DNA from: Candidatus Binataceae bacterium
Lineage (GTDB): Bacteria; Desulfobacterota; Binatia; Binatales; Binataceae
Direction: 5' to 3'
Assembly: GCA_963752805.1 (NCBI GenBank)
Contig: CAVWAA010000010.1
Location: 73,450 to 137,449 of the forward strand
DNA: 64,000 nucleotides
This document shows, one piece after another, positions 6,972 to 55,929 of this stretch (the first letter of the stretch is position 1; each line of letters opens with the position of its first letter). A program made the translations under genes and the position numbers. The notes under the pieces were generated by a model. The model ran no database searches and was not told the DNA's origin. It saw only the letters and a program-made list of their open reading frames with translations.

Positions 6972-9900
6972 TTGACGATTGCGATAAAGAGGAGCCACCA
7001 AACGCGGGGCCGCCAGACTCCGAGCCGTAGCTTCTTCGTGGTGGGCATCGGCGCGTCGGCGGGTGGGGTAGCCGCTTTGCGGGAGTTCTTTAGCCATGTA
7101 AAAGCCGATAGCGGCATGGCGTATGTGGTGATCCAGCATCTATCACCGCAATACGCTAGCAATCTTCCGGCCCTGTTGCAGAACCAAACCACGGCACCCG
7201 TGACGCAGGTTACGGAGGCAGTCCGGGTCGAACCGAACCATATCTACGTCATTCCGCCCAATAAATATCTGATCATGGCCGATGGCTGGGTTCGGCTTAC
7301 CGAACCTGAAATGATGCGGGGCGGCCATACCTCGATTGATCTCTTCTTCCGCAGTCTGGCCGATTCCTACCGCAAAAACGCGATCGCAATCCTGCTCTCG
7401 GGTGCTGGGACCGACGGGACATTCGGATTGAGGCGCATTAAGGAAGGCGGGGGGTTCGTGATCGCCGAAGATCCGGCTGAGGCCGAATACCCCGAGATGC
7501 CGCGCAGCGCGATCAACAGTGGGCTGGTCAACCTGGTCTTATCGGTGGCCGAGATGCCGGATAAGTTGTGCGGCTTAAGAGACAGCGCGCAACGCATCCA
7601 GCTTCCGCTCGAACAAGAGGAACCCCTGCCCCAAACAGTAGATGAGGTGACGTTACGGGAGATATTGACGTTGCTGCGCCAGCGCACCGGCCACGACTTC
7701 TCCCAATACAAGCGTCCTACGCTGATGCGAAGAATCGGCCGCCGGATGCAGGTCCACGAAGTGAGCGAGCTGGCCGGCTACCTGAATTTTCTACATGAGC
7801 GCCCCGAGGAGTTGGAGGCGCTGTTCCGCGATCTGCTCATCAGCGTGACCAATTTTTTCCGCGATCGTGAATCTTTTGATTTCGTCGCCGAGAAGGTCAT
7901 TCCGAAGCTGTTCGAAGGCAAGCAAACGAACGACCAGGTGCGAGTCTGGTCGGTCGGCTGTGCGACGGGAGAAGAGGCCTACTCGCTTGCCATGTTGTTG
8001 TCTGAGTACGCGGCGCATCTGCTACAACCGCCTAAACTGCAGGTCTTTGCCACGGATCTCGATGACCGGGCAATCGGTGAAGGGCGTGAGGGCCAATATC
8101 CGGCAACTCTCACAACGGACGTCTCGCCTGAGCCCGTCGAGCAATTCTTCGTCAAAGACGGTGAACGTTACAGGGTAAAAAAGGAGCTGCGTGAGATAGT
8201 CCTCTTTGCAGTGCACAACGTGCTGCGCGATCCGCCTTTCTCCAGGATTGATCTGATTAGTTGCCGTAATCTGCTGATATATCTAAATCGTGAAATGCAG
8301 GAGCGAATCCTCGGAATTCTTCATTTCGCCCTGCGGCCCAACGGCTATCTCTTCCTCGGCGCCTCAGAATCGGCCGAGATCGCGCCATCTTTGTTCATTC
8401 CGGTTGATAAGAAGCACCGGATTTACGGCCGTCGCACAACAGTCGGGCCCGACCTTCGTATCGCTGACGAGTGGCTGAACGCCAAGCCGCGGCTACCTGA
8501 CGTCGTCGGAACCGCGAGCAGCGCCGTTCGCTCAGTTGGTGAGTTGCATCAGGAAGTAGTCGAACAGCTCGCACCGCCGAGCGTGCTCATCAACGAAGAC
8601 TTTGACATTGTGCATATGAGTGCGCACGCCGGCCTCTATCTCCGCTTCACCGGCGGTGAACCAACGCGCAACCTGCTGAAATTAATCCATCCCCAACTGC
8701 GTCCGGATCTGCATGCGGCACTGATCGAGGCCAGGAGTCGGAGCCCGGGCAGCGCCGTGCAAACCCGGCGGCTCAGCCTTGAACTAGAGGGCAAACCTTG
8801 CTGGGTAGCAGTGACAGTACGGCCGGCCACCCATCGCCCCGAAGCAGCCCGCGGCTGTTACCTGGTGATCTTCGAGGAAGCTGCCGAGGCCCCTTCCATA
8901 GGGTCCGGACCAGCACTGGAAGCCGGTGATGTCAGCCGCATGGAATCGGTGGACCGGCTCGAAGAAGAGCTGCAGCGTACCAAGGACCAACTCCGTTTAA
9001 CCATCGAGCAGTACGAAACTTCGACCGAGGAACTGCGCGCTTCTAACGAAGAGCTCCAAGCGATTAACGAAGAGTTACGTTCAGCCACTGAGGAACTGGA
9101 GACCAGCAAAGAAGAATTACAATCGGTCAACGAAGAATTGACCACGGTCAACCAGGAATATCGTGAAAAAATCGAAGAGCTCGGCCGCGCGAACAGCGAC
9201 CTCCAAAATCTGATGGCATCGACCGACATCGGCACCATCTTCCTGGACCGCGCTCTGCAGATAAAGCTCCATACTCCTCCCGCAGAGGAGTTGTTTAACA
9301 TTGTCGGGGGCGATATTGGGCGGCCGCTCCAACATTTCACCCACAAGCTCGACTATGATTCGCTGCCGGCTGACGCGCAGGAAGTCCTGCGGACTCTTCA
9401 GACCATCGAACGAGAAGTCCATAGCTCAGATGGCCGCTGGTATCTGGCGCGTCTGCGGCCTTACCGCACGCTCGACGACAAGATCGACGGCGTCATTCTG
9501 ACTTTCGTCAACATCACCAGCCGGCGCCGGGTCGAGGAACAGTTGCGCGAGCAGGCAGCTCGGCTGCGCGAGCAGGCTGAGATCGTCAACCTCGGTGATC
9601 TGATGGTTCGCGATGCCGATGATCGGATCGTATTGTGGAGCGCCGGCTGTGAGCGCCTGTACGGCTACACTCGGCAGGAGGCACTTGGGAAAGATATACA
9701 TGAACTACTCAAGACCGAGTTCCCGCAGCCGCTGTCAGAAATAAACTCGGAGCTGCAGAGGAGTGGCCAATGGGAAGGCGAGTTGATTCATATTGACCGC
9801 GCTGGGAACCGTATCGTGGTCGTCAGCCACTGGGCGATCCATCGCCCCGAGGAGAATCGTCCGCCCGTAGTTCTTCAGGTCAACAGCGACATTACAGCCC

Positions 9901-19240: not shown

Positions 19241-19483
19241 TCAGAACGTAGACACCGAAATCGCCGCCGCCAGGACTGCCGCCGCCCCGGCGAACATCGA
19301 CATATCAGTGTGCTGCGTCGGAATCGTCTCGGCCTTGCCATCCTTGATGCATGCGGTAAAGGTCTCAGCCGAAATCACATCCGGATGAATCTTGGTGGTC
19401 CGGCAATCGTTACCGGCAAGGTCGGTGAAGTTCACTTCCTTGACCCGCGCACATCCGGAGGCGCACAACAGCACAAGCAGCAA
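19241..19483 (-). CDS. Putative small lipoprotein
   Basis: If translation starts at TTG 19483 (after GGAGCAATTAAAATC from repeat C2) the product begins MLLVLLCASGCARVKEVNF.. (lipobox-like ASGC). The upstream part of track ORF 19241..19591 is repeat-derived. Confidence 0.35.
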   Translation of the reverse strand: MLLVLLCASGCARVKEVNFTDLAGNDCRTTKIHPDVISAETFTACIKDGKAETIPTQHTDMSMFAGAAAVLAAAISVSTF

Positions 19484-53786: not shown

Positions 53787-54233
53787 CTACGCACTCGCTG
53801 CGTCCTCCAGAACTTGGCTGGCGTGGTCCGCAGGGTTCACCTTGCGGTAGACAGCCGCGATTTTCCCCTGCTCGTCGATGAGATAGCTGATGCGTGCAGG
53901 ATAACCAGCCCGGACATCGCTGCAGGCTCCATAAGCCAAACCAATTTTGCGGTCGGTATCGCACAGCAAGCTGAATGGGAAATGGTTCTTGCGGGCAAAA
54001 GCGGCGTTAGAGGCAACATCATCGAAGCTAACGCCGAGAATGACGATGCCGCAGTTTTCGAAAGCCGTGTATTGGTCGCGGAACCCGCAACCCTCGCGTG
54101 TTCAGCCTCCGGTATCGGCTTTCGGATAAAACCACAAAAGAACCTTGCGGCCACGCAGAGATGAGAGTGACAGGGGCTGCCCCTCATGCGTGGTCGCGGT
54201 GAACTCTGGCGCGTTTTCACCAACGTTAAGCAT
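53787..54233 (-). CDS. bcp: BCP/PrxQ-type peroxiredoxin with in-frame UGA at the peroxidatic-Cys position (candidate selenoprotein)
   Basis: Own translation from ATG 54233: [43 protein letters not shown]-[TGA 54102-54104][59 protein letters not shown]... One 149-codon frame. The UGA replaces the Cys of the conserved PGCT motif, and the resolving Cys sits 5 residues later as in BCP. Confidence 0.7.
54074..54092 (-). promoter_or_regulatory. SECIS-like hairpin 9 nt downstream of the in-frame UGA
   Basis: mRNA UGA ACACGCGAG GGUUGCGG-GUU-CCGCGACC forms an 8-bp stem (7 Watson-Crick pairs plus 1 G-U) with a G/U-containing apical loop. The spacing resembles the E. coli fdhF SECIS, whose upper stem starts 11 nt after the UGA. 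Confidence 0.5.
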
Positions 54234-54702
54234 CAGATTTACTCCACCGTACCCGATTAATTCCAATCGATATTCGCTAAATTCATCTGCTTTCGCAACA
54301 AATACGCTGTGTTACAGCGCGCTCTCCCCTGCGACATTGAATATGGCAGCCGCGAGCCGCGGGCATCGCGGCATTGTTCTCGAGCCGAAACTCCTACTGG
54401 TTTTAATCTGCGAAAATCTCGAGTAACAATTGGCGAGCGCAAAAAGGGCAGGGCGGCTGCGGCGCCGGCATATGGAGGGGAAATGGGCTGCGCCTGATTA
54501 GGCGGGAAGCGCAGGGTCGAGGCCGTAATCAGAAACCTCAACACGTCGAAACAATTGCTGCCGGCACCACCGCCGCAAAACAAAATATGCCGTGAACGCT
54601 TTGCCGAAAACACCGGTGACGATGTCACCCGTTGCATACTAATCCACGGAACTTGACCATCTGGATGCTTGCAATAGTTGTCGCGAGACGTAAGACCCAG
54701 AG

Positions 54703-55929
54703 TCAGGCACCCGACTGAAATTTCGCAGTGCCACGCAATAAGTCTTCGATTTCGGCACCGCTGTAACCTAATTGTTCCAAAATCTCGCGAGTATGAGCGC
54801 CAACCTCCGGCGCTGCCGACGGTTGACGTTTTGACTCACCGCTGACGAACAGCGGGCTGTTGACGGTCTCGATGTGACCTGCCAGCGGGTGATTCAACCC
54901 AATGATCGCCTCTGCGGCGCGCAGTTGAGGATCTTTCACGACATCCTCGAGCCGCGGCAGTGGCGCCCATTTGATATCGCTGCGCTTGAAGACGTCGGCC
55001 CATTGAGCCAGATCGCGGGCTTCGAACTGAGACCGCAGGATTTCATACAGGGCCGCCGCGTTTTCTTCGCGGGCGGCATTCGTGCAAAAGAGGTCGCTCG
55101 CCGACAACTCCGGCTGGTCAAGGATTCGGCACAAGCGGGGAAATTCAACGTCCGGATCTATCAGAACCAGCAAAAAAATCTTGCCATCGCGGCTCAGATA
55201 GGCGGCGGTGAGCGGATTTGGCGGATGGCCGCCTGCGCTCCGCTGAGGGAACTCTGCATTGAGCAGCTTCGCCTGGATATCACATGCATTCGCCCAGGCG
55301 CCGCTTGCGAGCAACGAGGTTGTGACGCGCGCGCCCTGACCTGTACGCTCCCGCCGGTATAGCCCAAGCATGATCGCACCGAACATCGACATCGCGGTCG
55401 GATGATCTCCCATCGCAGGCCGCGGGGCAGCCGGCGAGCCATCGCTACCGGTCACGCTCATCATCAGTCCGGAGCGCGCCCAGTAAGCCAAAGCGTCGAA
55501 GGCCGGTGCATCGGCATCCTCGCCAGCGTCTCCATAACCGGTCAAATGTGCGTAAATTAGCCGTCGATTGGCCGGTGCAAGATCTTCCCAGGTAAGACGG
55601 AACTTCTCGAGCAGGGTTCGCTGATAATTAGTCACGAACACATCCGCAGTGCCGACTAAACGGAGGAGCACTTCGCGGCCTTCAGGTCGGCCAAGATCCA
55701 GTGCAATGCTCTTCTTGTTGCGATTGGTTAATACCCAGCACCAGTCCAAATTGCATTTGGCTACGCCGGGAAGCTTGGAGAACAGCCGCCACAGGTCGCC
55801 ACCGCCTGGCCGCTCTATTTTGATTACTTCAGCACCGAAGTCGGACATCACTGTCGCCGCCGCAGGCCCGGCGACGTAAGTTCCACAATCGATCACGCGG
55901 ATTCCAGCGAGTACCCCGCGCTCATCCAT
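54703..55929 (-). CDS. Family III CoA-transferase (CaiB/BaiF-like)
   Basis: ATG 55929: MDERGVLAGIRVIDCGTYVAGPAAATVMSDFGAEVIKIERPGGGD.. is the CoA_transf_3 N-terminus. The track ORF start at 56004 probably over-extends. Confidence 0.85.
   Translation of the reverse strand: MDERGVLAGIRVIDCGTYVAGPAAATVMSDFGAEVIKIERPGGGDLWRLFSKLPGVAKCNLDWCWVLTNRNKKSIALDLGRPEGREVLLRLVGTADVFVTNYQRTLLEKFRLTWEDLAPANRRLIYAHLTGYGDAGEDADAPAFDALAYWARSGLMMSVTGSDGSPAAPRPAMGDHPTAMSMFGAIMLGLYRRERTGQGARVTTSLLASGAWANACDIQAKLLNAEFPQRSAGGHPPNPLTAAYLSRDGKIFLLVLIDPDVEFPRLCRILDQPELSASDLFCTNAAREENAAALYEILRSQFEARDLAQWADVFKRSDIKWAPLPRLEDVVKDPQLRAAEAIIGLNHPLAGHIETVNSPLFVSGESKRQPSAAPEVGAHTREILEQLGYSGAEIEDLLRGTAKFQSGA

Follow-up and report, generated by a model that had tools for sequence, protein, structure and literature searches.

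A peroxiredoxin frame interrupted by a single UGA

The window, by which we mean the whole 64,000-nucleotide stretch of DNA analyzed here, holds a peroxiredoxin-like frame with a TGA at the position of the catalytic cysteine, which raises the question of whether this codon is read as selenocysteine (Sec) and whether it is still read that way in this very organism. On the minus strand, positions 54233..53787 form one frame of 148 residues plus stop (447 nt) with a single internal TGA, opening with an ATG (54233-54231) and closing with a TAG (53789-53787). From the standard ORF listing one obtains no more than two fragments, a 54-aa N-terminal one (54266..54102) and a 60-aa C-terminal one (53969..53787), so the full gene is indeed missed by ORF calling, as the initial annotation had claimed, and its coordinates for the gene, the TGA and a downstream hairpin all proved exact when we re-read the sequence. 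The features of the locus are these:

53787..54233, minus strand: predicted coding sequence of a Sec-containing BCP/PrxQ-like peroxiredoxin (TGA=U translation, Pfam, PDB and 34 TGA-bearing orthologues)
54242..54245, minus strand: putative Shine-Dalgarno-like GGAG, with an 8-nt spacer to the ATG, from reading the sequence
54102..54104, minus strand: UGA codon 44, predicted Sec at the peroxidatic (Cp) position of P37-x3-T41-x2-U44 (alignment with Cys-form TGC/TGT codons and with 3drn)
54087..54089, minus strand: Cys49 codon TGC, probable resolving Cys at Cp+5, within the 5' arm of the SECIS stem
54074..54092, minus strand: candidate bacterial SECIS core, an 8-bp stem (7 Watson-Crick pairs and 1 G-U pair) with a GUU apical loop
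53892..53894, minus strand: Arg114 codon CGC, conserved peroxiredoxin active-site Arg (PARISYLID aligned with PARITFVID of 3drn)

Read through the TGA, the product matched Pfam AhpC-TSA (PF00578) at 114 bits against a cut-off of 26, and because this match covers residues 4-127 (profile positions 1-123 of 124), one AhpC-TSA domain spans the TGA. The best PDB match was 3drn (Bcp1; 1e-28, residues 1-143), followed by 5enu and 2ywn; the top 12 PDB matches were all BCP-type, and the top NCBIfam models were Bcp and PrxQ. These alignments with solved BCP proteins place the TGA at the peroxidatic residue of FYPKxDTxG-C/U-T, and P37, T41, U44 and R114 each pair with their counterparts in 3drn and 5enu, such that the Pfam match and the 3drn alignment agree on the earlier assignment of a BCP-type peroxiredoxin with UGA at the catalytic Cys; the resolving Cys proposed 5 residues past the UGA is likewise present as Cys49. 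Scores against the NCBIfam Bcp model (NF006960, 109.8 bits) and the PrxQ model (NF053650, 93.1 bits) lie below the respective equivalog cut-offs of 140 and 260, and we therefore describe the product as a BCP-like Sec-peroxiredoxin and not as a curated equivalog.

The UGA codon is conserved among orthologues

Orthologues were drawn from 30 relatives and from a 301-genome sample of the class (Binatia-like MAGs), about 330 genomes together. Among the 30 relatives, the best orthologues of ten genomes each had exactly one TGA and several others were stop-free; the class sample held an orthologue at E <= 1e-48 in 85 genomes, and approximately 66 of the 86 class-wide matches had exactly one TGA, many of these coming from complete single-contig genomes. 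We extracted 44 coding sequences for comparison, 34 of them TGA forms and 10 of them Cys forms. The TGA occupied the Cp codon in all 34 Sec-form orthologues (protein identity 54-79%), and the alignment with Cys orthologues, one of the checks recommended beforehand, placed TGC or TGT exactly opposite the TGA in the 10 Cys forms. In a maximum-likelihood tree built with the Sec/Cys column masked, the Cys forms were nested among the Sec forms, with at least three switches between the two. Apart from the Cp codon, 33/34 TGA forms were intact, the remaining genome copy having a second TGA near its end. This is the opposite of a pseudogene pattern and supports the earlier view that the gene is not dead; the lesioned copies seen were two, namely that genome copy and a short metagenome contig with a TAA at codon 129.

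That contig, a JGI metagenome contig (L066:744-1190), carries the same TGA, and its TAA leaves it with a database protein of only 128 aa. It is also the closest relative of the window gene (~92% nucleotide identity), and dN/dS between the two was 0.155 for the codons ahead of the TGA and 0.159 for those after it, the latter value therefore indicating purifying selection on the stretch that ribosomes would never reach if the TGA acted as a stop. A second metagenome contig (L092:1047-1493), which is 76% identical at the aa level and shares the convergent neighbour gene, encodes Gly (GGA) where the TGA would stand and retains a perfect hairpin downstream, along with several radical substitutions and a Ser replacing the conserved LLCDT cysteine, and it may be an inactivated or repurposed copy. 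Within the trio formed by the window gene and these two short single-sample contigs, dN/dS ranged from 0.13 to 0.17. A Cys at Cp+5 was restricted to the window genome, one genome of the same genus (G001) and L066, with most Sec orthologues having Arg (CGC) at this position.

A SECIS-like hairpin shares its nucleotides with a conserved peptide

Downstream of the UGA, the transcript can form the hairpin GGUUGCGG-GUU-CCGCGACC, with its stem starting 9 nt and its loop 17 nt past the UGA. The bSECIS model describes a loop of 3-9 nt with a G within its first two positions and then a U, a stem of 4-16 bp, a distance of 16-37 nt from the UGA and an MFE of <= -7.5 kcal/mol (PMC13188914); the hairpin lies within all of these bounds, with its 3-nt GUU loop, 8-bp stem, 17-nt spacing and -11.9 kcal/mol when folded alone. 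As a single sequence it is no better than chance (48-nt context folding against shuffles, z = -1.3, with 18/200 shuffles as good; not significant), so that the evidence for the hairpin comes from its conservation.

The same hairpin was found at the same place in 31/34 Sec forms, as GGYCGYGG-GUU-CYGCGAYC, and three Sec-form members of a sister family (f2) had an alternative hairpin, GGGCUC-7 nt-GAGCCC. Codon choice in the loop region was strongly skewed: the Gly codon contributing the loop G was GGG in 34/34, although GGG is the least used Gly codon in the rest of the gene and was in the minority at other invariant Gly codons (0 to 5 of 34), and the loop-region Phe codon was TTC in 30/31, versus roughly even use at other Phe codons. 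Among the Cys forms, 7/10 had C at that loop position and 8/10 had no hairpin. Judged from these codon counts, the SECIS loop codons are under extra synonymous-site constraint. Hence the SECIS-like, G/U-loop hairpin of 8 bp first proposed at 54092-54074 is supported both by its fit to the bSECIS description and by its frozen synonymous sites.

Variation in the stem was wobble-compatible (GC to GU, CG to UG), with 96.9% of cells paired versus 26-50% when the partner was slid, and even the Arg-to-Cys change that creates Cys49 (CGC to TGC) retains the stem through a U-G wobble. A covariation test on the stem found zero double compensatory substitutions, and shuffles equalled the observed values; the F-R-D codons fix the 3' arm, which explains why double changes are missing. 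Two Cys forms retained a hairpin: one (L034, genome G017), with TGT at the Cp codon, kept the same hairpin, and the other (L077, genome G053, from the sister family), with TGC, kept that family's alternative. The hairpin must therefore be partly a by-product of the G-R-G-F-R-D codons, and both cases are consistent with recent Sec-to-Cys conversions from Sec-form neighbours in the tree. Comparison among the orthologues shows the predicted SECIS to be written inside the codons of the conserved peptide G-(R/C)-G-F-R-D, a case of dual coding in which 19 nt must satisfy both an RNA structure and a protein sequence.

An Rfam/Infernal search around the hairpin, also recommended with the initial annotation, returned no matching family: neither the whole window at the gathering threshold nor positions 53950-54200 by E-value matched a SECIS family. 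To our knowledge, Rfam offers no general model for bacterial SECIS elements, and a null result was expected for this reason.

Sec machinery in the window genome and its relatives

The window is part of contig C10 of a 3.38-Mb, 34-contig assembly that is 69.9% complete and in which all contigs exceed 33 kb. The search for Sec machinery that had been suggested as a check came out divided, with selA found intact (494 aa, 579 bits versus a cut-off of 268) and selB, selD and tRNA-Sec not found anywhere in this assembly. A 50-bit RF01852 match was considered as tRNA-Sec and rejected, ARAGORN identifying it as tRNA-Ser(UGA). The assembly holds 31 tRNA genes and is missing tRNA-Cys, tRNA-Glu(UUC), tRNA-Pro(UGG), tRNA-Arg(ACG) and others, and these tRNA gaps together with the contig set show directly that roughly one third of the genome is missing from the assembly. 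Because completeness is only about 70% and tRNA-Cys is missing too, the absence of selB, selD and tRNA-Sec is weak evidence, and it differs from a lack of machinery in a complete genome, which had been named at the outset as grounds for rejecting the selenoprotein reading. Pointing the other way, the chance of losing all three unlinked loci at ~30% incompleteness is only ~3%.

Gene order around the missing loci was compared with genomes of the same genus. The tRNA-Sec gene was absent at both sites that carry it in those genomes, which themselves differ from one another there. The selB block (with an adjacent ABC transporter; common to G001 and G002) and the selD block of G002 were absent as whole 11-13 kb units with their neighbours, with no precise deletions. 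Since the two same-genus genomes do not agree even with each other in gene order, synteny is only suggestive as to whether these loci were deleted or left unassembled. At ~62000-63000 of contig C12, a homologue of the gene neighbouring tRNA-Sec in G002 adjoins unrelated DNA of lower G+C with small ORFs, possibly an element that inserted where a tRNA once stood.

Across the 30 relatives, tRNA-Sec was present in 22 (66-76 bits), selB in 27 and selD in 28, and every genome among them with a TGA-peroxiredoxin had at least two of the three. Of the 29 listed selD matches (relatives G002-G028, e.g., L062-L065), 22 had one in-frame TGA, a pattern by which selenophosphate synthetase is itself a predicted selenoprotein across the class. 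The Sec trait appears truly lost in 2/30 relatives (G020 and G026). G020, which is 100% complete, showed no tRNA-Sec, selB or selD in our searches and has three weak Prx-like matches with one TGA each.

Other TGA-interrupted redox genes in the same genome

We scanned the window genome for further TGA-interrupted genes with a home-made codon-usage method, which was noisy (262 candidates, the peroxiredoxin itself being missed), and kept only those candidates with a redox motif and Pfam confirmation. Three further redox genes remained, each with a single Pfam domain spanning or reaching the TGA:

Contig C1, 55247-55813, minus strand: AhpC/TSA-like gene with W-U-P-K-C (UxxC), TGA at 55655-55657, Pfam 79.5 bits, hairpin less canonical
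Contig C6, 18875-19729, plus strand: CMD/AhpD-like gene with C-P-F-U, TGA at 19394-19396, spanned by Pfam CMD
Contig C6, 8041-8889, minus strand: GrdB/PrdB-like gene with U-P-V-C, TGA at 8419-8421, Pfam GRDB 55 bits

The AhpC/TSA-like gene is a candidate selenoprotein of the Prx-like thiol:disulfide oxidoreductase type, and the CMD/AhpD-like gene, with a 7-bp hairpin and GUA loop 18 nt downstream of its TGA, is a candidate AhpD-like selenoprotein. The GrdB/PrdB-like gene is likely a second selenoprotein, having an 8-bp hairpin with a GUU loop after its TGA and keeping this TGA in the same-genus G001 at 84% aa identity. The hairpins of the CMD/AhpD-like and GrdB/PrdB-like genes both have G-U-N triloops and start 22 nt from the U of the UGA, compared with 21 nt in the peroxiredoxin.

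Weighing the readings of the UGA

Taken as a family, these genes almost certainly encode selenoproteins in this lineage, and we consider it likely that this particular organism, too, still reads UGA44 as Sec. Two readings that would remove Sec from the gene altogether have next to no probability. A Cys-peroxiredoxin gene broken by a nonsense mutation, or misread through a sequencing error, in this assembly alone cannot account for the same TGA codon in 34 independent genomes at 54-79% identity with the downstream hairpin conserved, and is in practice refuted. Nor is it credible that this organism uses TGA as a regular sense codon for Trp or Gly. Public gene calls for L066 and for another contig (L093:271-717) give the Sec codon as Trp, and W stands at this position in the database proteins P0002 and P0003, the contigs fitting only with TGA=W; this Trp is an artefact of the alternative code chosen for short contigs. 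In the window genome, TGA is the commonest ordinary stop (648/1295 long ORFs), and genome-wide reassignment is excluded because it ends half of the long ORFs. In addition, the sole tRNA-Trp has the anticodon CCA, no tRNA with a UCA anticodon was found in the assembly, and the relatives possess tRNA-Sec, selB and selD.

A reading that deserves more weight, and that we still regard as unlikely, is that of a selenoprotein relic, in which Sec decoding was lost very recently (selB, selC and selD gone, selA undecayed) and UGA44 now stops translation after 43 residues. Such a loss would fit the failure to detect three of the four machinery genes in the assembly, the absence of tRNA-Sec at both syntenic sites and the lack of any counterpart here to the selB and selD blocks of a same-genus genome; of the two closest metagenome relatives, one has a nonsense codon (L066) and the other a U-to-G replacement (L092), and two of the 30 relatives (G020 and G026) appear to have lost the trait. 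These absences come from an assembly that is 69.9% complete, retains only contigs >33 kb and lacks even tRNA-Cys, so they weigh little, and the selB and selD regions are gone as whole 11-13 kb blocks, unlike precise deletions. Against a relic also stand the intact selA, the four TGA-containing redox genes that are intact with intact hairpins, and the dN/dS of 0.16 past the TGA. It is similarly improbable that we are seeing loss of the Sec trait in progress, with selB, selC and selD really gone and selA persisting along with four UGA-bearing redox genes whose SECIS hairpins are intact. If this were true, the relatives would show the first fates of an orphaned gene (U44 to Gly; a nonsense codon), and the lineage would offer a dated natural series for the dismantling of a selenoproteome.

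Proposed decoding and catalysis

In our preferred reading, that of active Sec decoding, SelA would make Sec-tRNA(Sec) from Ser-tRNA(Sec) and selenophosphate, and SelB, the Sec-specific elongation factor, would carry this product and bind the hairpin 9 nt past UGA44, so that Sec is delivered at the UGA instead of release factor 2; conservation of codon and hairpin is what suggests these steps. The gene would then encode, as we think probable, a BCP/PrxQ-type thiol peroxidase with a thioredoxin fold whose peroxidatic Cys is replaced by Sec (U44). From what is known of the family, the selenolate would reduce peroxide and become a selenenic acid, which Cys49 at Cp+5 would resolve to a selenenyl-sulfide that a thioredoxin-type reductant could re-reduce. 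This selenolate/selenenic acid/selenenyl-sulfide cycle follows established BCP chemistry, and the pair formed by Cp and the Cp+5 Cys is presumably that of Sulfolobus solfataricus Bcp1. Most Sec orthologues are without the +5 Cys and may be 1-Cys enzymes or may use the conserved Cys91 or Cys104.

Relation to known Sec-peroxiredoxins

The initial annotation had stated that the family is not new, and the literature agrees: a Sec-peroxiredoxin with a TxxU motif was described in COG1225 ('Peroxiredoxin') in 2005 (Zhang, Fomenko and Gladyshev 2005, PMC1088965), twelve bacterial examples and five Cys-to-Sec events were later reported (Zhang et al. 2006, PMC1794560), and Sec-peroxiredoxins are listed in a 2026 review with PrxU of Eubacterium acidaminophilum as the experimental case (PMC13188914). 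The window gene resembles the surveyed COG1225 proteins in its PF00578 domain, its PxxxTxxU motif with a predicted Sec at the peroxidatic position, a candidate SECIS inside the coding sequence just downstream, widespread Cys homologues and repeated Sec/Cys switching. It differs from them in having a SECIS co-encoded by a conserved GRGFRD peptide, and whereas the surveyed proteins came from marine metagenomes, Deltaproteobacteria, Clostridia and similar sources, this one is a class-wide Binatia-like orthologue. In a full-text literature search, we found no paper linking Binatota with selenoproteins.

PrxU, thioredoxin-dependent and the sole Sec-peroxiredoxin for which the review cites experimental proof (Sohling et al. 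2001, via PMC13188914), also has Sec at the peroxidatic position and belongs to a different subfamily (NCBIfam NF040737): the window protein scores 50.9 bits against its cut-off of 270, over a shifted range of the 233-position profile, and was rejected as a PrxU orthologue. Compared with Cys-type BCP/PrxQ proteins (Escherichia coli Bcp, NF006960; S. solfataricus Bcp1, 3drn), it is alike in length (~150 aa) and in the spacing of Cp and Cp+5, and unlike them it has a predicted Sec at Cp and scores below the NF006960 cut-off, with most of its Sec orthologues having Arg at Cp+5.

Implications

General knowledge of selenoproteins is unchanged by this gene, and the case mainly illustrates how such genes are truncated by gene callers: with the ORF split and the Sec codon translated as Trp in public metagenome pipelines, databases give the wrong catalytic residue, or none, for an entire class of uncultured bacteria. 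The gene is also a clear example of a SECIS signal and a conserved peptide, GRGFRD, residing on shared nucleotides. For the biology of the Binatia-like lineage, the genomic record presents a consistent selenium user, equipped with tRNA-Sec, selB and a selD whose own product is a predicted selenoprotein, in which the predicted Sec-peroxiredoxin is retained as a conserved orthologue.
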